From the NCBI GenBank assembly GCA_028697015.1, contig JAQVFW010000002.1:5287-69286 (forward strand): a stretch of 64,000 nt of DNA. Reading direction: 5' to 3'. Numbering within the stretch: the stretch's first letter is position 1; each line of letters begins with the position of its first letter. The notes under the pieces are model-generated. The model had not been told where the DNA came from. It was given only the letters and a program-made list of their open reading frames with translations, and made no database searches. Origin of the DNA: Minisyncoccota bacterium. Its GTDB lineage: Bacteria > Patescibacteriota > Minisyncoccia > Minisyncoccales > GWA2-38-27. The translations under genes were made by a program, and so were the position numbers. Of this stretch, positions 19,484-59,026 are shown one piece after another.

Positions 19484-19501
19484 TCTTCTATTCTAACTTT
19501 T

Positions 19502-21442: not shown

Positions 21443-21451
21443 TTATAAAAG

Positions 21452-22462: not shown

Positions 22463-22471
22463 ACTTTAATT

Positions 22472-22504: not shown

Positions 22505-22521
22505 ATACATTTTTTAGGTAA

Positions 22522-22938: not shown

Positions 22939-23004
22939 TTAAGGCCCCGTGGTAATAAATAGCAAGAAGCGCCAAAAGCCGAAATATTAATATTATTTAT
23001 TTTT

Positions 23005-23238: not shown

Positions 23239-23273
23239 GATTTTTATTGAAATTAAACTTTTCTGACCTTTAA

Positions 23274-23936: not shown

Positions 23937-24030
23937 ATTTTTATTATTTTTATTATTTTTATTTTACGCCCTCTGCATTATATTATCATAATTATTTTAC
24001 AAGTGCAAGAATTGTTATTTATTGCAATAT

Positions 24031-24717: not shown

Positions 24718-24724
24718 GGCATTT

Positions 24725-25924
24725 TTAATTTATTTCCTGATAAATTTCAAGAAGGCGATTATACTTAACAACTCTTTCTCCTCTCGCAGGAGCTCCCGTT
24801 TTGATATAATCAGAAGAAATCCCCACCGAAAGATCGGCTATAAAATCATCCATTGTTTCTCCTGAACGATGAGAAATCATTATCTTTAGCCCTTTATCTT
24901 TTGCTTCTCTTATTGCCTCCATTGTTTCATAAACGGTTCCTATTTGATTGGGCTTTATTATTACTCCGCCTATAAGATCTTCTTCGGCAGCAAAAGAAAT
25001 TAAGCTTTTATTTGTTACGGTAAGATCGTCTCCGATAATTAAAGTTTTTTTCGCTTCTTTTTTTAAGGCCCTAAATCCTTCTATATCTTCCTCTTCAAAA
25101 GGATCTTCCATTGAAAAAATAGGATAACTCTTTATAAGGTCCAGATAAAACTTCAAAAGTCCGTCTCTTGTAAAAACATTGTTTTCAAGATGATATTCTT
25201 TGTTCTTATAAAAATAAGAAGCGGCGCAATCAAGGCCTATTTTGGTATCTTTTTTGATTATAGAGGAGATAATATCAAGAGCATGCACAGAAGATAAAAT
25301 AGGAGGAGAAAATCCCCCCTCATCTCCCACATTAATAGCTCCTTTGCCGTATTTTTTAACCAGTTCTTTTTTTAAATTTTGATAAATAAGAGCTCCTTCT
25401 TCAAGATTTTCTTTATAATTTTCTTTTTGAGGGATAACCATGAATTCCTGAATGTCTAAATTATTTCCGGCATGACTTCCTCCGTTTATAATATTAAAAC
25501 AAGGAAGAGGAAAACTTCCTTCTTTTTTATTATAAAGGTTTTGAATATGCCTATAAAGAGGAATGTTGTAATGAGCAGCCGATGCTTTTAAAACAGCAAT
25601 TGATACAGGAAGTAAAGAATTTGCCCCTAAATTTGACTTGTTTTCCGTTTTATCAAGCTCAATTAATTTTTTATCAAACTTTTCTTGATCTAAAATATTA
25701 AGATCTTTTATCGCCGAATAAATTATTTCATTGATATTTGATACGCAAGACAATACCTTTCCGTTTTTATCCCTTATTTCAACCGCCTCTCTTTTGCCAA
25801 CCGAAGCGCCAGAAGGAGAAGAAGCTTTAAATTTTCCGTCTTTTGTAATAACTAAAACTTCTGTCGTAAAATTACCTCTTGAGTCCAAAATCTGTCTTGC
25901 TTTTAGTTCTTCAATTTTTTTCAT
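24725..25924 (-). CDS. eno: Enolase (short form)
   Basis: IIKPNQIGTVYET and SHRSGETMDDFIADL enolase signatures. Confidence 0.85.
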   Translation of the reverse strand: MKKIEELKARQILDSRGNFTTEVLVITKDGKFKASSPSGASVGKREAVEIRDKNGKVLSCVSNINEIIYSAIKDLNILDQEKFDKKLIELDKTENKSNLGANSLLPVSIAVLKASAAHYNIPLYRHIQNLYNKKEGSFPLPCFNIINGGSHAGNNLDIQEFMVIPQKENYKENLEEGALIYQNLKKELVKKYGKGAINVGDEGGFSPPILSSVHALDIISSIIKKDTKIGLDCAASYFYKNKEYHLENNVFTRDGLLKFYLDLIKSYPIFSMEDPFEEEDIEGFRALKKEAKKTLIIGDDLTVTNKSLISFAAEEDLIGGVIIKPNQIGTVYETMEAIREAKDKGLKIMISHRSGETMDDFIADLSVGISSDYIKTGAPARGERVVKYNRLLEIYQEIN

Positions 25925-29409: not shown

Positions 29410-30651
29410 TTATTTTATTTTTCTCAATATTGCAGGAGTTTCATAAGAATCCTCCTCTAAAAAACCTTTTTCTATTTTTTGGTTTTCTTCTTGAATCTGA
29501 AGGCCATTCCTTCTTCTCTCGTCTTCCTTTCTTTCTTTTGTTTTAACTTCAATTTCCTTCTTAGAACTATTTTTCTTAATTTTTTTATTCTTTTTTTTAG
29601 AAGGAGCTTCGCTTTCTCCGCAACCTACCGCCAAAAGAATTGTTTTTATCTTGTTTTTATTCTTTTTGCTCTGATTTATGCCGAAAATAATTTTTGCTTT
29701 TCTGCTTGCCGAATTAGAGATTGCTCTTGATATCATGGAAACTTCGCTAAGGCATAAATCTTCCCCTCCTAAAATATTGTATAAAATGCCTTTTGCTTTG
29801 CTTGCGGGATATAAAGAAAAGGGATCTGAAGTAATTTTTTTCAAATCTTCCATAATATTTTCCCTGTCGATAGAATATGAATTCAAAAAAGCAAGCTGTC
29901 CTTTGCCGCTTAAAATAGTCCTAAAATCGGCAAAATCAATATTAATCACTCCGGGAGAATGTATCATTTCGATAAGCCCTTCCAAATTTTCAGCAAGATG
30001 CCTGTTTATAATAGAGAGAGCTTCTTTAATAGGAGTCTGCTTGTCAATAATTTCAAATATTTTTTCGTTTGGAATAAGGGAATAAGCATTAAGATAAGGT
30101 TTAGCTTTTTCAATTGAAGAAAAGGCAAATCCTTTTTTTCTTTCTCCTTCAAAATTAAACGGAAGAGTAAATATCCCATAAGTAAGGATATTCATTTTTC
30201 TTGCTTCTTTTGCAAAAATAGGCATTGCTCCGGAACCCGCTCCTCCTCCAAGACAGGAAACAATAATGCAAATATCCTGACCTGAAAGAATTTTTTCAAT
30301 TTTCTCTTTAGAAAGAGTAGCTGAAGATTCTCCCAAATCCGGGTCCATTCCGGTTCCGAATCCATAAGTAGCCCCTTCTCCTAAAAAGACCTTTTTTATT
30401 TTAGAAGAATTTTTTCTTGGCGCCACAGTATCGGTCAAAACAAAATCCGCTTTTTTAACTCTTGAAGAAATTTCAGAAATAATTGTTCCAGCCCCTCCTC
30501 CTATTCCAATAATTTTAATTTTTGTCTTCTGGACAACAGGAAGAACTTTTTTCTCCGCTTTTGGGGGCATCTTCTTTTCCCTTTTTTGCTTTTTAAGATT
30601 CTTCTTTTTTATTTTTTTTCTTGGCTCTTTTTTATTTTTATTCTTTGCCAT
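29410..30651 (-). CDS. ftsZ: Cell division protein FtsZ with Lys-rich N-terminal extension
   Basis: IKIIGIGGGAGTII, GGGAGSGAMPIFA, T7-loop NIDFADFRTIL, C-terminal YETPAILRK peptide. Confidence 0.8.
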   Translation of the reverse strand: MAKNKNKKEPRKKIKKKNLKKQKREKKMPPKAEKKVLPVVQKTKIKIIGIGGGAGTIISEISSRVKKADFVLTDTVAPRKNSSKIKKVFLGEGATYGFGTGMDPDLGESSATLSKEKIEKILSGQDICIIVSCLGGGAGSGAMPIFAKEARKMNILTYGIFTLPFNFEGERKKGFAFSSIEKAKPYLNAYSLIPNEKIFEIIDKQTPIKEALSIINRHLAENLEGLIEMIHSPGVINIDFADFRTILSGKGQLAFLNSYSIDRENIMEDLKKITSDPFSLYPASKAKGILYNILGGEDLCLSEVSMISRAISNSASRKAKIIFGINQSKKNKNKIKTILLAVGCGESEAPSKKKNKKIKKNSSKKEIEVKTKERKEDERRRNGLQIQEENQKIEKGFLEEDSYETPAILRKIK

Positions 30652-30687: not shown

Positions 30688-31056
30688 CTATTGTTGTTTT
30701 ATTGTTATAATCCTTACTCCAATACTGGCAATTTGCCCCCCTCCAAAAAGAAAAATAAAGGCAAAAATGGAAAAAGAAATTAAATTCATCATCATATTCA
30801 TTGATTCGGCCGGAAAAATATTTGAAATCTGCCCTGTTTTAAAGATTTCTTCAAAAATCATTTTTTGAACCGGGTCTTCTATTTCCATTATCTCCTTTTC
30901 TTCTTCAATTGGGGCTTCTTCTATTACAAAAATTTGAGGAGATAATGTTTTACCTGTAAAGATATTATAGGACACAAGGAGAGTAAAAACAATAAGAGAA
31001 ACCCCAAAAAGAAGCAAAATCCATCCTATAATATGCTTTATATAGAAATATGTCAT
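30688..31056 (-). CDS. Hypothetical small membrane protein
   Basis: Two predicted TM helices. No homology recognised. Confidence 0.3.
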   Translation of the reverse strand: MTYFYIKHIIGWILLLFGVSLIVFTLLVSYNIFTGKTLSPQIFVIEEAPIEEEKEIMEIEDPVQKMIFEEIFKTGQISNIFPAESMNMMMNLISFSIFAFIFLFGGGQIASIGVRIITIKQQ

Positions 31057-32105
31057 TTTTTTAAATAAATTGTCTGACTTGGAAAAGCCATTTTAACTTT
31101 TTCTTTTTCAAGTTTTTCTTTTATTTGAAGAAGAATCGACTGATGAGTATTCATAAACTCATTATAATCTCCCGAAAGAATATAATATACAATTTCAAAT
31201 AAAAGAGAAGAATCGGAGAATTCCGCAAAATGAGCTCTGTCAAATTTGGATAATTTTTCCTTCTTTATTATTTCTTCTACAATTTTTGGAATTATTTTAA
31301 GAGATTTTGTAGGTGTTGCATATTCTACTCCAAACTTGAAAACAACCCTTCTTTCTTTCATTTTTTTAAAATTTTGAATCCTGCTTGAAATAAGCTCATG
31401 GTTTGAAATTACAATCTCCTCTCCTTGAAGAGCTCTCAGGCGGGTTGTCTTGATACCGATTTTTTGCACGACTCCCATATGAGTGCCTGTAATTATAAAA
31501 TCTCCGACAGTAAAAGGCCTGTCAAAATGAATAGCAAAAGAACTAAAAAGATCGCTTAGAATGTTTTGAGCGGCAATTGCAATTGCTATGCCACCTATTC
31601 CAAGTCCTGCAATAAGAGAAGTAATATTTATCCCGAAATTTGAAAAAATAAGCAAAATGCCAAATACATAAAGAAGCCCTTTTAGAAGCTTGGCAATATT
31701 TGTTATCGCATGTTTTGTCCCTTCGTCTTTTTCCTTTAAAAAGTATTTTGGAAGAAGATAATCAATTGCAACATGGGAAACAAGAACAGCTTGATAAACA
31801 ATAATAATTAAAAAAGCTCCGTCTAAAATATGAAATATTATTGAATTTGCATATATAAAAAGTTTGAAAGAAAAATAAAAAGAAATAAAGACATAAAAGG
31901 AAAATTTAATTCCTTTTATTGTCCTTATTAATATTTTATCAAAATCTGTTTTTGCCTTTTCGGAGATCTTTGAAATTTTAACCAATATTATTTCCTGAAA
32001 TATCTTAAAAAGAATAAGAAAAAGAAAGAATAAAGATAAAAAGACGATATAATTAAGAACGCTATTTCCTAAAAAAACTACATTTAAAATTTGATCAATT
32101 TCCAT
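31053..32105 (-). CDS. mscS: Mechanosensitive ion channel, MscS family
   Basis: GLGIGGIAIAIAAQNILSDLFSSF...FTVGDFIITGTHMGVVQKIGIKTTRL. Confidence 0.8.
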   Translation of the reverse strand: MEIDQILNVVFLGNSVLNYIVFLSLFFLFLILFKIFQEIILVKISKISEKAKTDFDKILIRTIKGIKFSFYVFISFYFSFKLFIYANSIIFHILDGAFLIIIVYQAVLVSHVAIDYLLPKYFLKEKDEGTKHAITNIAKLLKGLLYVFGILLIFSNFGINITSLIAGLGIGGIAIAIAAQNILSDLFSSFAIHFDRPFTVGDFIITGTHMGVVQKIGIKTTRLRALQGEEIVISNHELISSRIQNFKKMKERRVVFKFGVEYATPTKSLKIIPKIVEEIIKKEKLSKFDRAHFAEFSDSSLLFEIVYYILSGDYNEFMNTHQSILLQIKEKLEKEKVKMAFPSQTIYLKK

Positions 32106-33571: not shown

Positions 33572-34198
33572 TCAAGCTTTACTGCTGTTTAGCGTCTTAA
33601 GTTTTAACGCCACTGTTCTTTCAAATCTCTCCCCTTCTTCAAGTTTTTGGGTAATATATTTTTTTGCTCTCTCAACTTCCGGAATATATACATGCTCTAA
33701 GGAATTAACCCTTCTTCTATTTTTCTCTATCTCGCTTGCAAGCTCTCTTATCTTTAAAGAAAGAGAAGCATATTCCATAAGATATTCCCCTAAAGATGCC
33801 ATTTTTTTCTTTGATAAAATAAATCGGTAATTTGATTTTTTAAAATCAACAGGACCGGAAAAGACGGCATCTTTGTTGATAATTCTATAATCATTTACTT
33901 CGACTCCCATAATATTTGACTTTGTTTTTTCAATTTCTGCTTTTGGAATAGAAGAAAGAGATTCTTTTGTTTCTTTCACCCCCAAAACATTTGAAGAATA
34001 AAAAAAATCAAGCAGCGCTAAAGGAAGTTCATTTTCAACCTTCTTTCTAAGAACAATAAGATCGTTTATCTTCTTTAGAAATTCTCTCATTAATCCTTCC
34101 AGTTTTTCTTTCAAAAGCTTATGCCCCGACTTTGCTATTTTAAGCCGTTTTTTTAGCTTCAAAAGTTCCTGACGAGTTGGATTAATTTTTGATTTCAT
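33572..34198 (-). CDS. atpD: V/A-type ATP synthase subunit D
   Basis: [29 protein letters not shown]-terminal signature. Confidence 0.8.
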
Positions 34199-35567
34199 CT
34201 TTTAAATATTTTTCAATATCTTCTTCTTTTACTCTCTTTAGCTCTTCTTTAGGCAAAATACTTAAAAGTTCCCAACCGATATTAAGAGTTTCTTCTATCT
34301 CTCTGTTCTCATTAATATTCTGTCTTAAAAACTTATCTTCAAAAAGACGGGCAAATTGTAAATAAAGAAGATCTGTTTTTGAAAGAGCCGACTCGCCTAA
34401 AATAACGGAAAGCTCTCTCATTTCAACGCCCCTTGCATAAGAAGCAAAAAGCTGACTGGCAAGACCAGGATGATCTTTTCTTGTCTTTCCTTCTCCTATT
34501 CCTTTATCTCTTAATCGCGACAAGCTCGGCAAAACATCAATTGGAGGATATATTCCGGACTGGTGAAGGTTTCTTGAAAGCATTATCTGCCCTTCGGTAA
34601 TATATCCGGTCAAATCAGGTATTGGATGAGTCTTGTCGTCTTCTGGCATTGTAAGAATAGGAATTTGAGTAACAGAACCGGGCTTTCCGGTAATAAGACC
34701 TGCTCTTTCATATATGGTTGAAAGGTCGGTGTATAAATAGCCGGGATATCCTCTTCTGCCGGGAATTTCTTTTCTCGCTGCAGAAACTTCTCTAAGGGCT
34801 TCGCAATAATTTGTCATATCCGTTAGAATAACCAAAACATGATATCCTTTCTTAAAAGCAAGATATTCTGCCATAGTTAAAGCCAGACGAGGAAGAATTA
34901 TCCTTTCAATTACTGGATCATCGGCGATATTCATGAAAAGAACCGACCTCTGAAGAGCTCCGGTTTTTTTAAATTCGTTTAAGAAAAACTGAGATTCTTC
35001 AAAAGTAATTCCCATTGCTCCGAAAACAATGGCAAATTTATCTTCCTTACCGCCGGCAATTTTTGATTGTCTTGCGATTTGAGCGGCAAGAAGTGAATGA
35101 GGAAGTCCGGCTGCGGAAAAAATTGGAAGCTTTTGGCCTCTTACAAGGGTATTTAATCCGTCAATTGCTGAAATTCCGGTCTGGACAAAACTATCAGGGA
35201 ATTCTCTGCAATAGGGATTAATAGGATTTCCGTTAATATCTACGGAATCTTCTGGAATTGGCTTTGAATGGCCATCAATAGGATTTCCTGAACCATCAAA
35301 AACTCTCCCAAGCATTTCTTCGCTAACCTCAAGAGACATAGTTTTCCCTAAAAATCTTACATTCGAGGCCTTTGTTTCCATTCCTCTTGTTTCTTCAAAC
35401 ATCTGAACAAGCGCCTTGCCTTCGCTCGCCTCAAGAACTCTGCCCATTCTTTTTTCGCCACTTGACATTTCTATTTCAACCAGCTCTTCATATTTAACAT
35501 TATGGATATTATCAACAACGATAAGAGATCCTACCACTTCTTTTAAACCTTTGTATTTTAACGACAT
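34182..35567 (-). CDS. atpB: V/A-type ATP synthase subunit B
   Basis: 461 aa, regulatory-subunit pattern without canonical P-loop. Follows the A subunit. Confidence 0.85.
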
Positions 35568-35610
35568 ATTTTTAAGAGTTTTAAATTATCAATATTACCT
35601 ATTGCCACTT

Positions 35611-37305
35611 TTAAGGAATAAATTTCATTTTTGCGATTTGCTGTTTTTCGGGCAAATCAAGAACATCTGATATGCTTTTTCCTTCATTTAACATTTTTAT
35701 TCCCTTTTTGTAATAATCAACTATCGCCTTTAGCATACTAAATTGCTTTTTCAAAGGGCAGTAAGTGTCGACTTTATCAAAGGCGCTCTGGACCAAAAAA
35801 TCCTCCCTTATTATCCTTCCCAGCTCCATTGTTAACTTGTCACTGTTTGAAAGCGATTCAAGGCCAACAAGCCGGACAATTTCTTCAAGCTTTGATTCTT
35901 CTCCTAAAATTTTCATTGCCGCTTCCCTATTTTCTGAAAATCCTTCTCCTGCATTTTTTTCAAAATATGAAGAAAGCGTTTCTGCATAGAGAGAATAACT
36001 ATTCAACCAATTAATTGCCGGAAAATGCCTGGCATAAGCAAGTTTATCTTCAAGCGACCAAAAAACTTTTGTTGTTCTTAAAGTATTCTGAGTAACAGGT
36101 TCTGAAAGATCTCCTCCTGGAGGAGAAACAGACCCGATAACCGTTAGCGCCCCCAAACGCTTTTTAGAAGAAAGGCATTCTACATACCCCGCTCTTTCAT
36201 AAAAAGAAGCTGTTCTTGAACCAAGATATGCGGGATATCCTTCTTCTCCCGGCATTTCTTCAAGACGAGCCGACATTTCTCTCAAGGCCTCCGCCCATCT
36301 TGAGGTTGAATCAGCCATAAGAGCGACGCTATAGCCCATATCTCTAAAATATTCCGCAATGGTTATTCCGGTATAAATAGAAGCTTCTCTTGCAGCAACT
36401 GGCATATTTGAAGTATTGGCAATCAAAACCGTTCTCTCTAAAAGGGGCCTGCCGGATTTTGGATCTTTTAACTGAGGAAATTCCTTAAGAACATCTGTCA
36501 TTTCATTACCTCTTTCCCCACAACCGACAAAGATAATAACATCAGCGTCAGACCACTTCGATATTTGATGCAAAACAACGGTTTTTCCGCTTCCAAAAGG
36601 CCCGGGGATAGAAGCGGTTCCTCCTTTTGCAACTGGGAAAAAAGCATCAAGAACTCTTTGCCCTGTAATAAGCGGCTCAAAAGGAACAAGTTTTTTTGAA
36701 ATAGTCCTTCCTTCTCTTATCGGCCAAACCTGAGACATGGAAAAGGAAAGATTATCTTCTTTAGATTTAATTTCAATAACCGCTTCTTTTACATTAAAAT
36801 CACCTTCTTTAATTGAAACAACCTGTGATGGTTTAACATTAAGAGGAAGCATGATTTTGTGAGTAACAAGAGGGGTCTCTATTACTTCTCCAAAAATATC
36901 TCCGGCTTCAATTATGTCTCCTGCTTTAACGGTCGGACTAAAATGCCATTTTTTTTCAAGGTCAAGAGAAGGCACATCTACTCCCCTTTCTATAAAATCG
37001 CCTGATTTTTCAGCAATATATTTTAAAGGCCTTTGTATTCCATCATATATCGAACCTATTAATCCTGGACCAAGAACAACCGAAAGCTGATTGCCCGTTC
37101 TATATACCGGTTCTCCGGGACCTATTCCGGAAGTTTCTTCATAAACCTGAATTGATGCCTTGTCTCCCCTTATTTCAATAACCTCTCCAACAAGGCCTTT
37201 ATCTGATACCTTTACAACTTCGTAAATCTTTGCCTTTTCCATATTTTCAGCGACTATAAGCGGCCCTGAAACTTTTATAATTTTACCTTTATTTTTTTCT
37301 TCCAT
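35611..37305 (-). CDS. atpA: V/A-type ATP synthase catalytic subunit A
   Basis: Walker A GPFGSGKTV. 564 aa. Confidence 0.85.
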   Translation of the reverse strand: MEEKNKGKIIKVSGPLIVAENMEKAKIYEVVKVSDKGLVGEVIEIRGDKASIQVYEETSGIGPGEPVYRTGNQLSVVLGPGLIGSIYDGIQRPLKYIAEKSGDFIERGVDVPSLDLEKKWHFSPTVKAGDIIEAGDIFGEVIETPLVTHKIMLPLNVKPSQVVSIKEGDFNVKEAVIEIKSKEDNLSFSMSQVWPIREGRTISKKLVPFEPLITGQRVLDAFFPVAKGGTASIPGPFGSGKTVVLHQISKWSDADVIIFVGCGERGNEMTDVLKEFPQLKDPKSGRPLLERTVLIANTSNMPVAAREASIYTGITIAEYFRDMGYSVALMADSTSRWAEALREMSARLEEMPGEEGYPAYLGSRTASFYERAGYVECLSSKKRLGALTVIGSVSPPGGDLSEPVTQNTLRTTKVFWSLEDKLAYARHFPAINWLNSYSLYAETLSSYFEKNAGEGFSENREAAMKILGEESKLEEIVRLVGLESLSNSDKLTMELGRIIREDFLVQSAFDKVDTYCPLKKQFSMLKAIVDYYKKGIKMLNEGKSISDVLDLPEKQQIAKMKFIP

Positions 37306-37307
37306 TT

Positions 37308-37586
37308 TTAATTGCTGAGCATGGGCATTTTAGCTCCCACCGCTCTCGTTATTTCTTTTTTCAAATATTCTTCGTCTTGCTTTTTAACAATTCCGGGTAA
37401 AAGGACAATTCCCGAAATTTCTTCGCTTAAAATGTCCTGGCTTACAAAAACAACTTCAAAATCCTCTTTTTTAATTTCTTCAAAAATCTGAAAAAATTCT
37501 TTCTCATTATCAGCAGAAAAGCAATAAAATCCCAAAAAGGAAAATGCCTCTGAATATTCTTTTGGGCCGATAAATGCTATTTTCAT
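37308..37586 (-). CDS. atpF: V/A-type ATP synthase subunit F
   Basis: MKIAFIGPKEY...FLGF, ~92 aa, in the expected operon position. Confidence 0.55.
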   Translation of the reverse strand: MKIAFIGPKEYSEAFSFLGFYCFSADNEKEFFQIFEEIKKEDFEVVFVSQDILSEEISGIVLLPGIVKKQDEEYLKKEITRAVGAKMPMLSN

Positions 37587-38176
37587 ATCATTCTGACGTT
37601 TTTTATAAGTTCGTTTATTTGAAGAGGCAAAATTCCCAGTTTCTTTGAAGAAAGTATAAGAGAAACTATTTTTTCTGCTTTTCTCTTTTTCAGTAGAAAA
37701 GCGAAAAAAGGAGAAAGTCCTTCTGTCTGCATTTCCGAAGCTAAAACAAATTCTTCTTCTTTTTCTTCAAGTAGGTCTTCTTTTTCTTTTAGTAGCTCCA
37801 TATCATTCTTCTTTGCCGTTTCTTCAAATTCTTTTAGTAATTGTCCGTAGGATTTTAAGAATGCAGATACTTTCTTTGACTTTATTTTCTTTGCGGTTTC
37901 GAAAACGTTTTCCTGATTTAAAGAAAGAAGATTTAATATTTCATCTTTCGCTCCCATTTTCAAAAGAATCTTTTTAAATTCTTCTTTTTCTTCTTTAATA
38001 ACATCTTCATAATTTGAAGAATCTTTTGAAAGGGCATAAGGGGCATAATCTGTATCCTGAAGAACTTTAAATGCTTCTTTTAAAGTTAGAGCGTTAATCA
38101 TTCTGCTAAAATCAGTAGAATCAACTACCCATTTTTCTTTAGCTCTTGCCCAATATATGAAAAAAAGATGCTTCAT
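37583..38176 (-). CDS. atpC: V/A-type ATP synthase subunit C (d-like), unusually short (197 aa)
   Basis: Operon position between E and F. Helical. Only ~60% of the usual subunit C length. Confidence 0.4.
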   Translation of the reverse strand: MKHLFFIYWARAKEKWVVDSTDFSRMINALTLKEAFKVLQDTDYAPYALSKDSSNYEDVIKEEKEEFKKILLKMGAKDEILNLLSLNQENVFETAKKIKSKKVSAFLKSYGQLLKEFEETAKKNDMELLKEKEDLLEEKEEEFVLASEMQTEGLSPFFAFLLKKRKAEKIVSLILSSKKLGILPLQINELIKNVRMI

Positions 38177-38766
38177 GAAAAAAGTAATGATAAATCGCTT
38201 TTATTATTTAAGACCGTCTCGTCAACTATCGAAGAAATACTCACTTCAAAGGAATATTTTTCTCCTTCAACTAAAAAACCGTCTTCAATTCCAAGCGATT
38301 TTTCGGTGACTTTTGCCTTTGGTAAAAGATTTTGAATTTCTTCTTTTTTTGAAAGAGGAGCAAAAACATTTTCAAAGGAAATAAGCTCTTCTAACTTATT
38401 TATTTTCTTTTCGTAGGCCTTTTTTCTTACATCAAAAGGAGCTTTTTTCAAACTCTCTTTAATTTCTAAAATAGCGCTGGTTATTAATTTTTCTTTTAAG
38501 GAAAGGCACTCCATCTTTAACTGGAATTCTTTTTCTTCTTTGTATTTTTCAAGAATGGCTCTTTTCTCTTTTTCAATTTGAGCGCTGTTTTTTTTAAGAA
38601 GGTCTTTTTCTTCTTTATTCATTTTTTCGTCCAGTTCCCTTATTTCTTTCTCAAAGTTTTTTTTCAACTCTTCTTTTCTTTTCTTTGTTTCTTCTTCTAT
38701 TTGAATAATAATAGGAGAAAGAGACGATATTGTCTTGGTGTTTGACATTTGTTTTTTCTTAATCAA
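38173..38766 (-). CDS. atpE: V/A-type ATP synthase subunit E
   Basis: Long N-terminal coiled coil followed by a globular C-terminal domain. Operon position. Confidence 0.5.
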   Translation of the reverse strand: MIKKKQMSNTKTISSLSPIIIQIEEETKKRKEELKKNFEKEIRELDEKMNKEEKDLLKKNSAQIEKEKRAILEKYKEEKEFQLKMECLSLKEKLITSAILEIKESLKKAPFDVRKKAYEKKINKLEELISFENVFAPLSKKEEIQNLLPKAKVTEKSLGIEDGFLVEGEKYSFEVSISSIVDETVLNNKSDLSLLFS

Positions 38767-38775
38767 TTTAAGAAT

Positions 38776-39249
38776 TTATATCACTATCCCGTTTAAAATC
38801 AGAATAGTTGCAAGAAGAGCAATAACGGCATAAGTTTCAACCATAGCTGAAAGAATAATAGCTTTCCCAACTTCTTCCGGCCTTTTAGCTAAAACAGATA
38901 TTCCGGCAGTACTTACCTTTCCCTGTAAAATTCCTGAAATAAATCCGGAAATTGCAATAGGAAGACAAGCAAAAAGAATTTGCCATCCTACTTCCGAAGG
39001 AAAAACCATTGACTCTCCTGTAAACATTCCTATTTTTTGAAGAACTAAAACAGCCGCTAGAAATCCGTAAATTCCCTGTGTTCCGGGAAGAACTTGAAGC
39101 ATAAGAGCTTTTCCAAATTTTTCCGGTTCTTCAGAAATAAGGCCTGAAGCGGCCTGTCCTACATAACTAATGCCGAGAGCTGAACCGATTCCGGCAAGCG
39201 CGACGGCGAATACTGCTCCCAAAATAGCTAAAAAAATTCCCATTTCCAT
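38776..39249 (-). CDS. atpK: V/A-type ATP synthase proteolipid subunit K (c-ring, 4-TM duplicated hairpin)
   Basis: LAGIGSALGISYVGQAASG glycine-zipper motif. 157 aa. Confidence 0.7.
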   Translation of the reverse strand: MEMGIFLAILGAVFAVALAGIGSALGISYVGQAASGLISEEPEKFGKALMLQVLPGTQGIYGFLAAVLVLQKIGMFTGESMVFPSEVGWQILFACLPIAISGFISGILQGKVSTAGISVLAKRPEEVGKAIILSAMVETYAVIALLATILILNGIVI

Positions 39250-39279
39250 ATTTTTTTTGTTTAATTATTATTTTTATAT

Positions 39280-41142
39280 TTAACTTATAATTTCTACAAA
39301 CCGACCCTTTTTATTTAATGGTTTAAAATGCCTTCCTCCTCCTTCCATAAACTTTGAAAAAAACTCAACAAACTGCAATCTTGCCGAATGAATAAATGCT
39401 CCAAGGGCGTTAATAAGAAGGTTTGCCGTATGCCCCAAAAGAAGAACCATAAAAGCGACAAGCCAATTTATTCCCGGTATTGGAATCATATCTTTAAACA
39501 GAAAAGCAATCATGTTTATAACCATGGCGATTATTCCCGTTGCAAGACCTAAGGCAAGAAGACGAGAATAAGAAAGAATATCGCTAAAATAGCCGACTAT
39601 TCCATACAAAGCTCCAAAACCGGAAAGAGCCCTCGCCATAATCCCTTTTTTGGAAGAAAAAAGAATATTCAAAAGAAAAAGTAAAATAACTCCTATAATC
39701 GCAAATAAAGATGATTTTGTTAAAAAATAAAGGAAAACGCCTAAAAAGAAAAGAATAGAACCTCCTTTTTCTCCAATTCCCCCATTTATATCCCCTTGTT
39801 TTAGACATTGGAACATTCCTATTATAATCCCTACAAAAAGCTGGAAAGCTCCCAGAAAAAGCATAAAAATTAAAGTACCAATGGGATTTTCCATTGGATC
39901 AATAATCCTGTATCCGGAAAAAACATTCGTCCCGAAAAAAGTTCCTGTTAAAATTCCGGCAATAACAGTTGAAATTCCTCCTATTATGAAAAGATTGAAA
40001 AAGCCGGAATATTCTTTCTGTTTAAGAATTTTTTTCAAAACAATGGAAAGCAATATTAAAAGAGCTCCGTATCCGGCATCAGAGAGAGCAAGGCCGAAAA
40101 AAAGAGCAAAGAAAAAAGAAAGATGAGGAGTCGGGTCAAACTCCGTTCTTTTAGGCAATCCATAAACATTTGTCACGCTATTAAAAGGAGCAATTAATCC
40201 TTTATTTTTAATACAAACAGGAGGGTTATCTTCTTCTGATATCTCCATTTCCCTTATAAACGAATCAGGAAAAGAATCTTCAATCTTTTTTTTAACTAAA
40301 GGGAAGGAATCTTCGGTTGTAAAGGCCTCTATTCTGAAAAATCTCATTGTTTCAATGCCAAATGACATTGATCCTAATTTTTCAATCTCCCAGGAATAAA
40401 AATCGATCAATGCTTCTATTTTAGGAAGAAAAACAGCCATTTTTTCGGCTTCTTTCTTTTCAATATCCCCTTCAATTATTATGGTCTCAAGCTCTTTTTC
40501 TTTTTGTTTTAAATATTTATAAGGAGAAATGTTCCAAAAAATATTCTCTTCCCTTACTTTGTATTTTTCAAAAGCATTTCTGAAAAAACTCTCATCTTCT
40601 TTGGAAAAGACCAAGGAAAAATAATTATCCTCTGTAAATTGAATGCTAAAAATTTTTCCTTTTATTTCTTTAAGAAAATTATCTTTTTCCTTCTTGGAAA
40701 AGACGCCAACGGTACAAAGATATTTTTTCATCTTTAGCGAAGATGAAATAGAAAGATCTTTTACTTTATCTAATGTTTTTATTTCTTTTTCTAATTCCTT
40801 TTGGATTGATTTTAAGGAATTTAAACGTTCTTCAATTTCTTTACATCTTTTTACAACTTTTTCTATTTCTAAATCAAAAGATAAACTTTCTATTTCAGAT
40901 AAATGCAAAAGAGGCCTTTCATTTAAAAGACCAGAGACAAGCCCTTTCTTTGGTTTAAACTGATCAAGAAAGCTTTTTGCAAATTTAAGTTCAGAGTATT
41001 TTGGCAATGAAGTTGCAGAACCGGAAGATGAATTCTTGCCAGAGATTACTTCAACAGTTCCAAGTTTTTGGATTTCTTCAAGCAAAATTTCCTTCTTTCC
41101 TTTTTCTATAATAATCTCTATTTTCTTTACGGGAATATTCAT
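39280..41142 (-). CDS. atpI: V/A-type ATP synthase subunit I (membrane stator a-subunit)
   Basis: 620 aa. N-terminal soluble coiled-coil domain plus C-terminal polytopic membrane domain. Confidence 0.6.
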   Translation of the reverse strand: MNIPVKKIEIIIEKGKKEILLEEIQKLGTVEVISGKNSSSGSATSLPKYSELKFAKSFLDQFKPKKGLVSGLLNERPLLHLSEIESLSFDLEIEKVVKRCKEIEERLNSLKSIQKELEKEIKTLDKVKDLSISSSLKMKKYLCTVGVFSKKEKDNFLKEIKGKIFSIQFTEDNYFSLVFSKEDESFFRNAFEKYKVREENIFWNISPYKYLKQKEKELETIIIEGDIEKKEAEKMAVFLPKIEALIDFYSWEIEKLGSMSFGIETMRFFRIEAFTTEDSFPLVKKKIEDSFPDSFIREMEISEEDNPPVCIKNKGLIAPFNSVTNVYGLPKRTEFDPTPHLSFFFALFFGLALSDAGYGALLILLSIVLKKILKQKEYSGFFNLFIIGGISTVIAGILTGTFFGTNVFSGYRIIDPMENPIGTLIFMLFLGAFQLFVGIIIGMFQCLKQGDINGGIGEKGGSILFFLGVFLYFLTKSSLFAIIGVILLFLLNILFSSKKGIMARALSGFGALYGIVGYFSDILSYSRLLALGLATGIIAMVINMIAFLFKDMIPIPGINWLVAFMVLLLGHTANLLINALGAFIHSARLQFVEFFSKFMEGGGRHFKPLNKKGRFVEIIS

Positions 41143-41447
41143 AAGATTTCTCTTTTGAACTTAGTTAGAAGCAAGTCAAAGTTTTTTCTTGCCTTATTTT
41201 TCAATTCTTCAAATTGACCAGTGCGCTTATTTTCAATTTCTTTGTCTATATTTGCAAATTCCGATTGAAGGTCTTTTTTTAAATTACTTCTCTTTTCTTC
41301 GTCCTCTTTTTTTGTTTTGGCAATTTTTTCCTCCCAAAAACAAATACGATCTTCTTTTCTTTTTTGAAGTTCTTTTTGATAATCTTCAATCTCTTTTTCT
41401 GAAACCTCTTCGGCTTCCATTATTTTAGATAATGAATCTTCTTGCAT
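41139..41447 (-). CDS. V/A-type ATP synthase peripheral-stalk subunit G/H-like
   Basis: 102-aa all-helical Glu/Lys-rich protein at the head of the operon. Confidence 0.4.
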   Translation of the reverse strand: MQEDSLSKIMEAEEVSEKEIEDYQKELQKRKEDRICFWEEKIAKTKKEDEEKRSNLKKDLQSEFANIDKEIENKRTGQFEELKNKARKNFDLLLTKFKREIL

Positions 41448-43458: not shown

Positions 43459-44266
43459 AATGTTTTTCCAAAAAGGTTAATGCTTCCTTTGTATCTTTTG
43501 CAAGATGATAAATTTTTGTATCTTTTTTATCTATTGATCTGTTCCTTTTATAGATAATCTCGTCAATAAAAGATAAAAGTGGCTCCCAATAGCTTTTATG
43601 AAGAAGAATTATGGGAATATTTTTTACTTTGCCGGTTTGAATAAGCGTCACAACTTCGAAAAACTCATCAAGAGTTCCAAAGCCCCCGGGAAAAAATATA
43701 TACGCCTGAGAAGCAAAAGTTAGCATTACTTTTCTTATAAAGAAATACCTGAAAGAAACAGATTGTTTTACATATTTATTTATCCCTTGTTCTTTAGGAA
43801 GATTTATATTCATTCCCAAAGATTCTCCCCCAGCTTCATGTGCTCCCTTGTTTGCCGCCTCCATAATTCCAAGTCCTGCTCCAGTTACAATTGTATATCC
43901 CCTTTTTGAAAGTTCCCTTGAAAGCAAAAACGCTTCTTTATAGTATTTATGAGAGGGCTTAACTCTAGAAGAACCGAAAAAAGTAACCGTTTTATCGTAA
44001 CGGTTTAAAAAATTAAATCCTTCAATAAATTCGCTCACTATTCTTGAAATCCTCAAGGGGGAAATATATTTAATGTGTTTTGCGTGTTCTTTCTCTAATA
44101 CTTCTTCAGGATTGTTATTTTTTTCTTTTTCCATATTTTTTTGAATATTTTTTAACCAATTTTTGGAATAAGTCCCCTTTTTCTGAAAAGTTTTTCCAAA
44201 GAGAATAGCTCGGTGATGCAGAAGAAAGAAGACAAATTTTTCCTTTTTTTGTATTTTTGTAAGCAA
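43448..44266 (-). CDS. LOG-family (TIGR00730) nucleotide-binding Rossmann protein; true start probably at internal Met ~44134
   Basis: VTFFGSSRV...GYTIVTGAGLGIMEAANKGA...PGGFGTLDEFFE. Confidence 0.7.
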   Translation of the reverse strand: MLTKIQKKEKFVFFLLHHRAILFGKTFQKKGTYSKNWLKNIQKNMEKEKNNNPEEVLEKEHAKHIKYISPLRISRIVSEFIEGFNFLNRYDKTVTFFGSSRVKPSHKYYKEAFLLSRELSKRGYTIVTGAGLGIMEAANKGAHEAGGESLGMNINLPKEQGINKYVKQSVSFRYFFIRKVMLTFASQAYIFFPGGFGTLDEFFEVVTLIQTGKVKNIPIILLHKSYWEPLLSFIDEIIYKRNRSIDKKDTKIYHLAKDTKEALTFLEKHYAQ

Positions 44267-46580
44267 ACCTTACTGCCTCTTCCATGTTCTTTGTTTTCAA
44301 AATATTAAAACCCAAAAAAGAAGAAAGAATTCTTTTCCCGCTGTCAGGAAAAAGAACTACGTTTTTTATCTTATACTTTCTGAGAGTTTTTTCAAGCTTT
44401 AAAAAATCATATCCACGGTCCTGTCCGCCTAAAAAAATTGTATCAACTTTTTTTAGCGTTTCGATTGCCATTATTGTCGACTGAGGAGTAGTGGATGCGG
44501 CATCGTCGTAAAATTCTATTTCATTATAAATGCCGATCGGTTCCAACCTGTGCTTCAATGGCTTAAAATTTTCAATCCCCTTCTTTATTACTGCCAAAGG
44601 AATTTTAAGAAGTTTGGCTGCTTTTATTGCCGCCTTAATATTATATTTATTATGAACTGCAAAAGAAGGGAATTTATGATTCAAAGAAATATCTTTTTCC
44701 TTAAAAGGAAAAAGAAGAGACAAATCTCCTTCTTTTTGAAATTTAAAAATATTCATTTTGGCATTGTAATAATTCTCAATTTTTCCATGATAATCCATAT
44801 GCTCTGGAAAGAAATTTAAAAACAAAGCAAGATTGGGAGAATAATTAATATCAGAAAGCATATAGCTTGAAAGTTCAATAACAAAAATCTCCTTTGGATC
44901 AATTTTTGAAGAAAAAACATCAAGAACCGGATTGCCTATATTCCCGATAAGACGGACTTTTCTGCCGCTTTCTTTTAAAATTTGGAATATAAGAGAAGAA
45001 GTCGTGCTTTTCCCCTTTGTCCCGGTTATTCCTATTGTATAGTTTCTATTTTTAGAAAAGAAGATATTTACGGCGGTTGTATAAGGAATCTTTATTTTTT
45101 CTTTTGGAATTCCTGGTGTTTTTATTGCCAAATCGTATTTCTTCTGTTTTTGGAGATAATTTTTATCAAACTGCATATCAAGAATTCCCACATTTATATT
45201 GGGATGAAATTTTTTAATATATCTTTCTGCTGATTTCCCTTCTTTGCCGTATCCTATAATGCACACTTTATCTTTTCCGTAAATTCTGAAAAAATCGGGA
45301 ATCGTTTCTGTATCTCTTGTTTCAAATACTTTTTCTACAAGCTTTTCTGAATTTTTAATTAAAGGAAGAAATTTCTGCACTACAGGACTATTTTTATATT
45401 TCTTACTTGAAAGAAAAAAAGCGGCTCTTGCTTCTTCAAAAGTCCCAACACAATCAAAGGGCTTCATATTTCCAAACCCCAAAATATCTTTAAAAGTCGA
45501 AAATAATTTATCTTCTTCTAAAAGATTTTTTTTAAATATTTTATACAAATCAATTTTTGAAAGAAAAGGAGAAAGAATCAAAAAAACAAAAGCGCACTTT
45601 GGACAATTGCCGCACCAAAGAGAATTTCCTCTTTTTTTGAAAACTTTAAAAGAATTATTACAGCTTGTAAAAAGAGGAAAATATTTTTTATATTTTGCAA
45701 AAATCTTGGCAATTTTTATTTCATAAAAAGGCCTTAGAATAGAGAAATAGACAATATCAGGAGTAATGAATTTTTTACTATAATCCTGAAACATCTTTTC
45801 AAATTCTTTGGACTTGCTCCATTGGTGATTTATATTCTCATTACAGTAAGAAACGTTTCCAAAATTGCTGCTTTTTTCATTGCCAACAATAACGTATCTA
45901 AAATTATAAAGAAAAGCCAGAAGAAGTCCGATAAAAGCGAAAACGGCTGAAATTGGAATATGGCCGTTATATCCTCCTTCATGATTTTGAAAAATTTTAG
46001 GATCAAGAATTCTGACTGCTTTAAGAGAAGGATTTCCAATTTTTTTAACTACTTTTTCCAGAACGATATTTTTTCCTTCTGTTTGAACATAAAAAGAAAC
46101 AGAAGGAAATCCCCTTAGAATCTCAGAGGCAACAATTGAATCTTTCCCTCCCCCAATTCCAATAAGAGCCCTTTCTTTCTTTTCAATTCTGAGGGGTTTT
46201 TTAGTTTTTTTAGAATATGGAAACTTAGCTATCTTATTTGGATTTATCTTGTTTTTATACAAAAACTCTCCAAGGCCCTTTCTATAAACAGTATTCCAAA
46301 AATCGGCCTGTTCTTTAGAAAGGGAGAAAGAAAGCTTTATCTTTGAAGGACAATAAAGCTTGTAATAGCTTATTCCAAGTATAATAGAAAGAGGTTCTAA
46401 AAAGTTTTCAAGAGATTTTTGAGAAACGCCAAAAATCTTAGAAGGCAAGAGAATAACTTCTTTGAAATTTAAGGGCTTTCTGTTTAAAAATTCAATTCTG
46501 TAATAAAAAGAAATCTTCAAATCTTTAGCATTGAATTTATATCCCTTAAAATGGAAGGTTTTTGGCTTTGGAGAAGACAT
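44115..46580 (-). CDS. murD: Fusion protein: N-terminal PP-loop ATP-pyrophosphatase-like domain with Cys cluster (~aa 1-430) + C-terminal complete MurD (UDP-N-acetylmuramoylalanine--glutamate ligase, ~aa 435-821)
   Basis: N-domain: GIGGGKDS PP-loop and CGNCPKC. C-domain: KVCIIGYGKEGKS Rossmann N-terminus and IGITGTKGKSTTSSLI Mur-ligase P-loop. Single uninterrupted 821-aa ORF. Confidence 0.7.
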   Translation of the reverse strand: MSSPKPKTFHFKGYKFNAKDLKISFYYRIEFLNRKPLNFKEVILLPSKIFGVSQKSLENFLEPLSIILGISYYKLYCPSKIKLSFSLSKEQADFWNTVYRKGLGEFLYKNKINPNKIAKFPYSKKTKKPLRIEKKERALIGIGGGKDSIVASEILRGFPSVSFYVQTEGKNIVLEKVVKKIGNPSLKAVRILDPKIFQNHEGGYNGHIPISAVFAFIGLLLAFLYNFRYVIVGNEKSSNFGNVSYCNENINHQWSKSKEFEKMFQDYSKKFITPDIVYFSILRPFYEIKIAKIFAKYKKYFPLFTSCNNSFKVFKKRGNSLWCGNCPKCAFVFLILSPFLSKIDLYKIFKKNLLEEDKLFSTFKDILGFGNMKPFDCVGTFEEARAAFFLSSKKYKNSPVVQKFLPLIKNSEKLVEKVFETRDTETIPDFFRIYGKDKVCIIGYGKEGKSAERYIKKFHPNINVGILDMQFDKNYLQKQKKYDLAIKTPGIPKEKIKIPYTTAVNIFFSKNRNYTIGITGTKGKSTTSSLIFQILKESGRKVRLIGNIGNPVLDVFSSKIDPKEIFVIELSSYMLSDINYSPNLALFLNFFPEHMDYHGKIENYYNAKMNIFKFQKEGDLSLLFPFKEKDISLNHKFPSFAVHNKYNIKAAIKAAKLLKIPLAVIKKGIENFKPLKHRLEPIGIYNEIEFYDDAASTTPQSTIMAIETLKKVDTIFLGGQDRGYDFLKLEKTLRKYKIKNVVLFPDSGKRILSSFLGFNILKTKNMEEAVRFAYKNTKKGKICLLSSASPSYSLWKNFSEKGDLFQKLVKKYSKKYGKRKK

Positions 46581-46596
46581 AAAAATTAATTAAAAC

Positions 46597-48003
46597 TTAG
46601 ATTCTGATAAAGGAGAATGAATTAATAATATCTTTTCTTCCTTTATGCTCTCCGCTTACAATAAGCAGTTTTTTTCCTTTGGCAATAAGTTTTTCTTTTC
46701 TTAATTTTTCAGCTGTATTTTTTATCGCTTCCGGAGAGGCAAGATCAAAAGAGACAAAAAACGGCTCAACTCCGCAGGATAAAGAGAGCTTTTCGGCTGT
46801 TTTTCGATTATTAGTAAGAGCGATAATTTTTGTTTTAGGTCGAAAACTGGAAAGAACTCTTGCAGTATAGCCACTTTCAGTAAAAACAACAACAATATCC
46901 AGTTCAGGCCTTGCCTTCAATATGGAAACAACTGCGCTAATTGTAAGTTCTGTTGTTGTCCTGAGTTTGAATGAAAGAGTAGAAAACCCCGTTTTCTTTT
47001 CATTGAATTTCAAGATCTTTGCCATTGTTTCAACGGCTCTTATAGGATATTGGCCTATGGCCGTTTCTTCGGAAAGCATAACCGCATCAGCCCTGTTAAA
47101 AACGGCATTTGCAACATCGGTCGCCTCGGCTCTTGTCGGACGCGGGTTTTTTATCATTGAATAAAGCATTTGAGTTGCTATTATGACAGGCTTTCTCGCC
47201 TCCATGCATTTATATACGATTTTTCTTTGAAGATATGCCAAGCGTTCAATTGGAACTTCTATTCCCAAATCCCCTCTTGCAACCATTACGGCATCTGAAT
47301 ATTCAATGATTTCTTCTAAATTATCTATTGCCTGTTTGTTTTCTATCTTTGAAACAATTTCAGCGTTGATTTTTCTTTTTTCCATTTCCCTTCTTAAAAC
47401 TTCTATATCTTTTTTATTTCTCACAAAAGAAAGAGCAACATAGTCAATTTTCTCTTTTGCGATCATATCAAGGCTTTTGAGGTCGTTTTCAATTAAAGAA
47501 GAAAGATTTAAATTCTTACTTGGAAGATTCAAGCTTTTTTTATCCTTAATAACTCCCCCCTCTATAACTTCTGCAATAATTCTGTCTTTCTTTTTATTCA
47601 TTACAACAAACTCAATAAAGCCATCGTCAATAAGAAGTATGTCTTTTTTTGAAAGAGATTCAAAAACAGATTTATTTGACAAAGCAAGAGAAATATCTCT
47701 GGAATTAAAATTCTCTCCTATTGTAATCAAATCCCCTTTTTCCACTTTAATTTCTCCTTTTTCTCTTGTTTCAATACGAATTTCAGGACCTTGCAAGTCT
47801 ATAAGAATAGCAATATTTTTTTTCAATTCCGTCGCTGCTTTTTGGGCTCTCTTTATCCTTTGGTTATGCCAAGATATTTCATTGTGCTTGGTATTAAAGC
47901 GAAAAACGTTTACTCCCGCACTAATAAGGGACCTTAATAATTCCGGCGTATCTGTAGATGGACCGACCGTGGCAACTATTTTGGTTTTTTTATCAAAAAT
48001 CAT
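46597..48003 (-). CDS. pyk: Pyruvate kinase
   Basis: KIVATVGPST and MVARGDLGIEVP motifs. 468 aa. Confidence 0.9.
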   Translation of the reverse strand: MIFDKKTKIVATVGPSTDTPELLRSLISAGVNVFRFNTKHNEISWHNQRIKRAQKAATELKKNIAILIDLQGPEIRIETREKGEIKVEKGDLITIGENFNSRDISLALSNKSVFESLSKKDILLIDDGFIEFVVMNKKKDRIIAEVIEGGVIKDKKSLNLPSKNLNLSSLIENDLKSLDMIAKEKIDYVALSFVRNKKDIEVLRREMEKRKINAEIVSKIENKQAIDNLEEIIEYSDAVMVARGDLGIEVPIERLAYLQRKIVYKCMEARKPVIIATQMLYSMIKNPRPTRAEATDVANAVFNRADAVMLSEETAIGQYPIRAVETMAKILKFNEKKTGFSTLSFKLRTTTELTISAVVSILKARPELDIVVVFTESGYTARVLSSFRPKTKIIALTNNRKTAEKLSLSCGVEPFFVSFDLASPEAIKNTAEKLRKEKLIAKGKKLLIVSGEHKGRKDIINSFSFIRI

Positions 48004-58362: not shown

Positions 58363-58872
58363 TTATTTAATTTGTTTTAATGCATTTATAAGACCTTTTG
58401 TACTGCCCTGGCAAACACTAAGGAAATTTACAATAGGAGCGTTTAAACATGAAAGAAGCGATCCGTAAAGAACTTCTCTTGAAGGCATCAGTGCCAAATC
58501 AGTAACCTTTTCCTTGCTTATGCAAACATTATCAAGCAATCCTCCAAGAATATTAAAACTTTTATTTCCCTTGGAAAAATCAAAAATATCTTTCGCAAAT
58601 CCGAACTCATCGTTGTAATTAAAAATCAATCCAAGTCGGCCGCTAAGAAGAGTTTCATCAAGAGGAATCTCATTCTTTATAAAAGCCATTTTTGTAAGAG
58701 TTTTTTTTGAAACCACAAAATCAGTTGATTTTTCTCTTAATTTTTCCCTTAAAACCAGAACGTCTTTATTTTTTAATCCGTCAATATCGACAAAAACCGC
58801 TGATTTTTGCTTTTTCAGCTTATCTTGCAGTTCTTTTAGTTTTTCTTTTTTTTGTTCTTTTGTTAAAGCCAT
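58363..58872 (-). CDS. rplJ: 50S ribosomal protein L10
   Basis: MALTKEQKKEKLKELQDKL...SAVFVDIDGLKNKDVLVLREKLRE. Start taken at the MAL Met. Confidence 0.85.
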   Translation of the reverse strand: MALTKEQKKEKLKELQDKLKKQKSAVFVDIDGLKNKDVLVLREKLREKSTDFVVSKKTLTKMAFIKNEIPLDETLLSGRLGLIFNYNDEFGFAKDIFDFSKGNKSFNILGGLLDNVCISKEKVTDLALMPSREVLYGSLLSCLNAPIVNFLSVCQGSTKGLINALKQIK

Positions 58873-59026
58873 AAAATTAAAAAGCTGCCCTATAGACAGC
58901 GTGGAAAACATTATTATAAATGCAAATTCACCACCTCGATAAGTCTTACCCCTTTAAGGGAGCTTATTGTCTACGGTAAAGATATATTACAAATTCCTAA
59001 AAAAAAGTCAACCCCTTTATTTAAAA

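Follow-up and report, generated by a model that had tools for sequence, protein, structure and literature searches.

A stretch of 64 kb from contig JAQVFW010000002.1 of a Minisyncoccota bacterium (hereafter the window, at its full length) contains a gene, murL::murD2, which very probably encodes a bifunctional enzyme performing both steps of the MurD2/MurL route to the D-glutamate (D-Glu) of the peptidoglycan stem. The gene is a single uninterrupted open reading frame (ORF) from ATG to stop, and its product of 821 amino acids (aa) joins an N-terminal homologue of the epimerase MurL to a C-terminal ligase of the MurD2 type. The pathway and its two enzymes were reportedly described by Feng et al. 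in 2017. Both enzymes, the pathway and database MurL models matching these fusions are already known, while the fused architecture, its wide distribution among bacteria of the candidate phyla radiation (CPR) and the assignment of MurL to the PP-loop/QueC-like enzymes were not found in the searchable literature. MurL of Xanthomonas oryzae catalyzes the ATP/Mg-dependent, AMP-forming and unidirectional L-to-D epimerization of the terminal Glu (PMC5808125, PMC8788868).

Domain composition of the MurL-MurD2 fusion protein

Residues 7–429 of the protein match the NCBIfam model NF041275 across almost its entire length (model positions 8–437 of 447; E 4.8e-98, 328.6 bits). This model represents MurL, the UDP-N-acetyl-alpha-D-muramoyl-L-alanyl-L-glutamate epimerase of Xanthomonadales. 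The record of the identical protein carries PF26299 (MurL_N) and PF26298 (MurL_epimerase_C) next to Mur_ligase_M; the local Pfam copy held no MurL model, and its scan of the 821-aa protein yielded only Mur ligase domains. MurL of Rhodanobacter lindaniclasticus (Xanthomonadales), which attains 777 bits with NF041275 and passes the equivalog cutoff of 700 bits, is 34 % identical to the window domain. According to a 7-sequence alignment including Rhodanobacter MurL (A5), both have in common GGGKDS, H207, E235, NHQWSKS, S306-C307-N308, W322-C323..C326.K328-C329, K373-P374..C377-V378-G379 and E383. These elements show no or hardly any variation among 60 diverse MurL members (35–49 % identity). Fully invariant among the 60 are GGKDS, which is likewise invariant in A5, as well as P374, C377, V378 and E383, the latter located just beyond the KPFDCVGT motif. 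The motifs GIGGGKDS, CGNCPKC, KVCIIGYGKEGKS and GITGTKGKSTTSSLI are invariant among 41 fused homologues. The four cysteines of the Cys motif are likewise invariant in the fused clade, nearly invariant family-wide and present in Rhodanobacter MurL. Sequence comparison thus supports the N-terminal domain to be a full-length MurL homologue. As with Xanthomonadales MurL, its coding sequence is immediately followed by that of a MurD2-type ligase. The domain differs from Xanthomonadales MurL by being covalently fused to this ligase rather than standing alone (~447 aa), by an identity of only ~34 % and by a score below the equivalog cutoff.

The C-terminal module (residues ~438–815) passes the cutoff of TIGR01087 (murD; 251.7 vs. 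211.95 bits, starting at residue 438) and that of Pfam Mur_ligase_M (residues 518–623, E 9e-21), whereas Mur_ligase_C (residues 677–788) stays with 26.0 bits below its cutoff of 28.4. The best neighbours of the full-length structural model in the PDB are MurD crystal structures (Foldseek; template modelling (TM) score up to 0.75 on target). With canonical MurD, the module shares the fold (TM ~0.74 on target) and the catalytic positions, i.e., the ATP-binding P-loop, the Mg-site His (H594) and the position of the carbamylated Lys (K608).

At the positions governing the choice between D- and L-Glu, in contrast, the module departs from canonical MurD. Numbering of Escherichia coli MurD follows the literature and omits the initiator Met, as verified on the sequence. 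The canonical set of Asp182, Lys319 and Lys348 is absent and replaced by Glu, Ala and Arg, respectively, and Pro and Tyr occupy the positions of Ala414 and Leu416. Near the Glu site, MurD2 of X. oryzae differs from E. coli MurD by E197/D182, R358/K348, P433/A414 and F435/L416; its E197D/R358K double mutant switches completely to D-Glu, and the K319T variant of E. coli MurD accepts L-Glu (PMC8788868). Rhodanobacter MurD2 has E, I, R, P and F at positions 182, 319, 348, 414 and 416, in agreement with the published X. oryzae residues. Among the 41 fused homologues, R722, P790 and Y792 are invariant and E593 is nearly so. A canonical, D-Glu-adding MurD was rejected as identity of the module, considering the replacement of D182, K319 and K348 and the presence of the MurD2 residues.

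The same residues were surveyed in 75 MurL-linked ligases from 80 genomes. In a scan of GTDB, with every species represented by one genome, at least 593 genomes had a MurL relative; the best 80 of these were taken, and six-frame ORFs were analyzed in their loci of roughly 20 kb. Arg occupies the K348 position in 71 of 72 ligases and Pro the A414 position in 68 of 70. The L416 position is mostly aromatic (Tyr 59, Phe 7, His 3, Thr 1). Lys never occurs at the K319 position, where all 72 ligases with a residue possess I, F, L or A, and the D182 position is taken by Glu (62) or Asp (13). The window ligase accordingly resembles MurD2 as a three-domain Mur ligase linked to MurL, with Glu, Arg and Pro at the D182, K348 and A414 positions. 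It is distinguished by Tyr instead of Phe at L416, by a smaller size (~385 vs. ~460 aa) and by being the C-terminal part of a fusion. Judged by phmmer E-values, Rhodanobacter MurD2 is nearer E. coli MurD (2.4e-53) than the window ligase domain (4.4e-38), hence a single origin of MurD2-type ligases does not follow from these data.

The first-pass annotation, made from the sequence alone, had recognized a MurD in the C-terminal part of the 821-aa ORF and a separate module of ~430 residues with GIGGGKDS and CGNCPKC in front of it, and had considered a single-polypeptide MurD2-MurL route. All four motifs it quoted were located (GIGGGKDS at residue 141, CGNCPKC at 323, KVCIIGYGKEGKS at 438 and GITGTKGKSTTSSLI at 517). 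TIGR01087 and Mur_ligase_M bear out the ligase, NF041275, PF26299 and PF26298 the separate module, and full-length MurL homology together with the MurD2 specificity residues the proposed route. Profile search of the N-terminal region led to MurL families that are already modelled in Pfam and NCBIfam. An unrelated PP-loop enzyme, e.g., of the tRNA thiolase type, which had been named as an alternative, was rejected.

Table 1. Coordinates of the murL::murD2 gene, its modules and selected motifs in the window
Feature	Coordinates	Strand	Basis
murL::murD2 fusion gene, complete (821 codons + stop)	44115..46580	-	ORF listing; NCBIfam MurL and murD models on one polypeptide; Pfam domains
MurL module	45288..46580	-	NF041275; AlphaFold2 model; Rhodanobacter MurL motifs
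MurL N-terminal subdomain (~residues 1-130), 3 beta strands and helices before the PP-loop core	46191..46580	-	secondary structure of the model; PF26299; boundary approximate
PP-loop motif GIGGGKDS (residues 141-148), predicted ATP alpha/beta-phosphate binding loop	46137..46160	-	conservation; QueC alignment; Foldseek
NHQWSKS motif (residues 251-257; H252 and K256 invariant), candidate catalytic/substrate-binding motif	45810..45830	-	invariant columns in alignments A4 and A5; role putative
Four-Cys motif C307-x15-C323-x2-C326-x2-C329, probable QueC-like structural Zn site	45594..45662	-	conservation
KPFDCVGT motif (residues 373-380; C377 invariant), candidate acid/base for C-alpha inversion	45441..45464	-	conservation; role putative
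MurD2-type ligase module (residues 432-821)	44115..45287	-	TIGR01087; Mur_ligase_M/_C; Foldseek
Mur-ligase ATP P-loop GITGTKGKST (residues 517-526)	45003..45032	-	aligns with GSNGKST of E. coli MurD; invariant in fused homologues
E593-H594, Glu at E. coli Asp182 (= MurD2 Glu197) followed by the Mg-site His	44799..44804	-	pairwise and 76-sequence alignments
A695 at the Lys319 position of E. coli MurD	44496..44498	-	alignment
R722 at the Lys348 position of E. coli MurD (= MurD2 Arg358)	44415..44417	-	alignments
P790-S-Y792 at Ala414/Leu416 of E. coli MurD (= MurD2 Pro433/Phe435)	44205..44213	-	alignments

Predicted fold of the MurL module and proposed reaction sequence

MurL has been said to "lack known conserved domains", to need ATP and Mg and to release AMP (PMC5808125, PMC8788868). 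When an AlphaFold2 model of the full-length protein, based on the 41 fused sequences (predicted local distance difference test (pLDDT) 87.3, predicted TM score (pTM) 0.82), was used for the fold search, only MurD and other Mur ligases were retrieved, which masked the N-terminal domain. The search was, therefore, repeated with a model of this domain only (pLDDT 92.2, pTM 0.91). The best PDB neighbour of the domain model is QueC (2pg3; E 1.4e-5, probability 1.0, TM 0.62 on target, 246 columns), next to TtuA, the QueC-like Cap9, argininosuccinate synthase, NcsA, LarE, NAD synthetase, ThiI, TrmU, GMP synthetase and nitrile synthetase; all of these are PP-loop ATP pyrophosphatases. In the model, GGGKDS (residues 143–148) directly follows the first core strand (135–141), as expected of a PP-loop. 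In a profile alignment with E. coli QueC, the motif pairs with SGGQDS (hhalign E 0.005, probability 7 %); only the PP-loop is aligned, and this match is by itself too weak to indicate sequence homology. A sequence search of the PDB with the domain gave no match at E up to 1, and there is, therefore, no solved structure of any MurL relative. Predicted structure and a single Foldseek search, on which the assignment rests, support a PP-loop, QueC-like fold of the MurL module, in line with the PP-loop nature ascribed to it in the first-pass annotation. Such a fold would explain precisely this chemistry of MurL, the need for ATP and Mg as well as the release of AMP.

The module is predicted to share with QueC and other PP-loop ATP pyrophosphatases (TtuA, NcsA, LarE, argininosuccinate synthase, NAD/GMP synthetases) the Rossmann-like PP-loop core with an xGGxDS loop at the first strand-helix turn and, by analogy, the activation of a carboxylate with formation of AMP. 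A C-x(n)-C-x2-C-x2-C motif like that of the QueC Zn site is also present: its spacing is C-x15-C-x2-C-x2-C in the window protein and C-x8-C-x2-C-x2-C in E. coli QueC, at a similar distance from the PP-loop. The four cysteines probably form a QueC-like Zn site, as judged from this pattern; alternatively, they may coordinate an Fe-S cluster. Unlike these enzymes, the MurL module displays no detectable sequence homology past the PP-loop, possesses an additional N-terminal subdomain (~130 aa) as well as an additional helical region at its C-terminus, and its proposed outcome would be epimerization and hydrolysis, not amide, nitrile or thio-transfer.

From the homology of both halves, the specificity residues and the fold class, we infer the following reaction sequence. 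The C-terminal ligase would add L-glutamate to UDP-N-acetylmuramoyl-L-Ala (UDP-MurNAc-L-Ala) at the expense of ATP, releasing ADP and Pi via an acyl-phosphate. The N-terminal module, acting as a QueC-like PP-loop ATP pyrophosphatase, would then adenylate the alpha-carboxylate of the newly added L-Glu with release of AMP and PPi. Adenylation would acidify the C-alpha proton and allow conserved bases, with C377 and H252/K256 as candidates, to invert the centre. The product would subsequently pass to MurE. Free D-Glu, and hence glutamate racemase, would thus be dispensable.

Several observations weigh against this interpretation. With NF041275, the window protein scores far less than the equivalog cutoff demands, this cutoff being tuned to Xanthomonadales. 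The window ligase passes the cutoff of TIGR01087, the model of canonical murD; however, this model cannot separate MurD from MurD2, since Rhodanobacter MurD2 also passes with 337 bits. The D-Glu-specific MurD of Streptococcus mutans likewise has Arg at the K348 position (PMC8788868), and single residues such as this Arg are, therefore, not diagnostic. Asp at the D182 position of 13 of the 75 MurL-linked ligases (e.g., at loci L019, L028, L036, L044 and L058) means that the MurD2 signature is not absolute; the window protein itself has Glu. This Asp contrasts with X. oryzae MurD2, where the E197D change alters stereospecificity (PMC8788868). An active glutamate racemase was, moreover, reported for at least one CPR bacterium (Saccharibacteria), according to a reference cited in PMC11974145, and reliance on MurL can, therefore, not be assumed for all CPR bacteria.

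The nearest fold neighbour also offers a different assignment. QueC activates a carboxylate with ATP and subsequently forms an amide and a nitrile. The C-terminal half could accordingly be a canonical, D-Glu-adding MurD and the PP-loop module could serve another carboxylate activation, e.g., a QueC-like amidation of the Glu alpha-carboxylate to iso-glutamine, analogous to MurT/GatD. The score with TIGR01087 and the identity of merely ~34–39 % between CPR MurL domains and proteobacterial MurL would be compatible with this assignment. We nevertheless regard it as improbable, because all family-invariant residues recur in a MurL above the equivalog cutoff, because the ligase possesses the MurD2 set in place of D182, K348 and K319, because the pairing of the genes extends without a break from Xanthomonadales to CPR bacteria, and because no glutaminase or ammonia-donor partner is evident beside the fusion gene.

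Fused and split genes in relatives and the supply of D-glutamate

Contrary to the first-pass view of the fusion as unusual, this architecture is common among CPR bacteria. In a collection of 5.8 billion proteins, more than 120 protein clusters (58–65 % identity, 793–861 aa) all possess the same four Pfam domains. Names attached to these clusters, where there are any, are Parcubacteria, Uhrbacteria, Moranbacteria, Paceibacterota and Patescibacteria. Their source labels mostly read "Mur ligase family protein", "hypothetical protein" or "D-glutamate ligase", and one JGI record mentions MurL epimerase. HMMER search with the MurL half retrieved 2,511 clusters at 50 % identity, 1,190 of them at E up to 1e-30; among the top 150, stand-alone forms of ~440 aa are intermixed with ~21 forms of ~800–900 aa. 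A different architecture of the family is represented by P0258 (699 aa), with the MurL domain at residues 290–650 following ~290 residues that have no Pfam match.

Most of the best 80 genomes bear CPR labels (Moraniibacteriota, Uhrbacteria, Staskawiczbacteria, Peribacteria/Peregrinibacteria, Roizman-, Woese- and Levybacteria, Gracilibacteria and others). Among the rest are Alphaproteobacteria, one metagenome-assembled genome (MAG) each of Thermoanaerobaculia and Solirubrobacteraceae, the genome of Rhodanobacter and several MAGs that are labelled otherwise or only generically. The host of the window, a genome of the CPR/Patescibacteria type, is outside the taxa listed in reviews of MurD2/MurL, i.e., Xanthomonadales, a few Alphaproteobacteria and rare actinomycetes. 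Fused ORFs (812–933 aa, or cut by the contig end) occur in 29 of the 80 genomes, almost all of them CPR/Patescibacteria. In 45 others, murL and a murD2-type gene are co-directional neighbours whose stop and start codons often overlap; these pairs include the bona fide one of Xanthomonadales (Rhodanobacter). The order is murL followed by murD2 in 43 of the 45 split pairs. The reverse order, murD2 followed by murL, was observed in the other two (L071, 8643–11272; L081, 8652–11287).

The fusion would have arisen from the joining of neighbouring murL and murD2 genes, and the ancestral order of murL before murD2 would account for the N-terminal location of the module that performs the second step. 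In a neighbour-joining tree of MurL, which is tentative as it was calculated without bootstrap, 26 fused loci and the window protein form one clade, while the fused loci L041, L044 and L050 are placed beside split ones. The position of these three outside the clade suggests at least two fusion/fission events. A likely effect of the fusion would be a 1:1 stoichiometry of both activities; the intermediate may, in addition, be handed over directly. Other fused Mur enzymes (MurE/MurF and MurC/Ddl of NCBIfam; MurC::MurB at locus L023) likewise unite consecutive or related UDP-MurNAc-peptide steps in one polypeptide. The murL::murD2 product differs in coupling a ligase with a non-ligase epimerase, and in having the second step at its N-terminus, mirroring the gene order.

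In relatives, the genes are also found in the context of cell wall synthesis. At locus L009, the fused gene is located between murE and murC, the usual slot of murD. At L023, it directly follows a murC::murB fusion of 850 aa, and at L030 the split pair comes after murE, murC and murF. The murC::murB gene of L023, which belongs to a related CPR MAG (7439–9988), was recognized with 363 bits for MurC and 279 bits for MurB; the two fusion genes of this locus encode four steps of UDP-MurNAc-dipeptide synthesis.

The presence of murI, a transaminase or a second murD had been raised in the first-pass annotation as a test of the route, and this can be answered for the window: neither murI, nor a gene of the D-amino-acid transaminase type (fold-type-IV aminotransferase), nor a second Mur ligase gene was found in the 64 kb, where E. 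coli MurI and IlvE as queries produced nothing better than E ~1; this negative for the window says little on the whole genome. No match to MurI occurred in the 80 related loci, which is an incidental outcome of the locus scan. These loci also contain no second MurD-like gene of comparable score, and the other Mur-ligase ORFs tested are MurC, MurE or MurF.

A genuine MurL-MurD2 fusion could also be redundant or serve another role, as in salvage, as back-up or with an L-amino acid other than Glu at position 2, next to murI and a canonical murD elsewhere in the genome. The visible genome comprises 64 kb only, the gene is located among glycolysis and ATPase genes rather than in a dcw cluster, and the racemase activity reported for a Saccharibacteria genome, as cited in PMC11974145, would fit such a role. 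Such a role is, however, improbable, as no second MurD-like gene was found in the 64 kb of the window and none of comparable score in the ~20-kb loci of relatives, where the fused gene fills the murD slot between murE and murC. In general, redundant pathways are seldom retained in the small genomes of CPR bacteria. Finally, a fusion specific to this contig, due to a frameshift or lost stop, which had been considered in the first-pass annotation and could result from a single base error because many relatives keep separate genes with often overlapping stop and start codons, is effectively refuted by more than 120 independent clusters of like length (811–860 aa), by fused ORFs in 29 species genomes, which mostly fall into a single clade of the MurL tree, by the identical protein on the independent Logan assembly SRR11702756, and by an ordered junction (pLDDT ~90) with essentially no linker (~9 residues from the conserved MurL Pro428 to the first MurD strand).

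Genomic surroundings and implications

The fusion gene is flanked upstream by the gene for pyruvate kinase (46597–48003) and downstream by a LOG/lysine-decarboxylase-like gene, which overlaps its 3' end by ~20 nt. Its surroundings comprise genes for glycolysis, a V/A-ATPase and housekeeping functions, and are located outside any dcw/mur cluster; no other mur genes were found near it in the 64-kb window. Genes of central carbon metabolism are abundant at 16510–25924 and 46597–48003 (phosphoenolpyruvate synthase/pyruvate phosphate dikinase-like, acetyl-CoA synthetase, GAPDH, phosphoglycerate mutase, enolase and the above pyruvate kinase). A V/A-type ATPase operon on the reverse strand (33572–41447) encodes subunits D, B and A, a C/AC39-like protein and a subunit I of 620 aa; the genome that carries it looks like one of the CPR/Patescibacteria type. 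FtsZ is encoded at 29410–30651 and an MscS-type channel at 31053–32105.

An essentially exact tandem duplication at 11182–16562 (period 2,679 bp; 13 mismatches, at the edges only) copies genes for a class-II fructose-bisphosphate aldolase and a PfkB-family kinase (12013–13824 and 14692–16503). It could represent a recent event or an assembly artefact. One complete 16S rRNA gene was detected on the reverse strand (2289–3776), and a 23S rRNA gene occurs nowhere in the window; the rRNA genes, therefore, appear unlinked. Just beyond the 16S rRNA gene, a large serine recombinase is encoded on the forward strand (37–1437), and tRNA genes are located at 1372–1443 and 5988–6059. A ribosomal protein L10 leader (RF00557) was identified on the reverse strand at 58869–58994 (49.2 bits vs. 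a gathering score of 44), upstream of a probable rplJ/rplL region.

As a natural single chain, the enzyme is convenient for structural and biochemical study of how both reactions are coupled. A PP-loop/QueC-like fold would provide the long-missing structural rationale for the ATP-to-AMP requirement of MurL and points to the GGGKDS loop, H252, K256, C377 and the four-Cys site as candidate catalytic residues. Since most fusions are labelled otherwise, metabolic reconstructions based on murI could wrongly call peptidoglycan synthesis of CPR bacteria incomplete. Beyond the window, we lean slightly towards a broader interpretation, according to which the MurD2/MurL route, confined to a few genera in the reviews, is the main or only source of D-Glu in a large part of the CPR/Patescibacteria, has been merged there on two or more occasions into a single bifunctional enzyme with a possible direct transfer of the L-Glu intermediate from ligase to epimerase, and involves with MurL a previously unassigned, QueC-like branch of PP-loop enzymes in which carboxylate adenylation drives stereoinversion. 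If this holds true, MurD2/MurL would turn from a Xanthomonas-type curiosity into a widespread supply of D-Glu in the reduced genomes of CPR bacteria.

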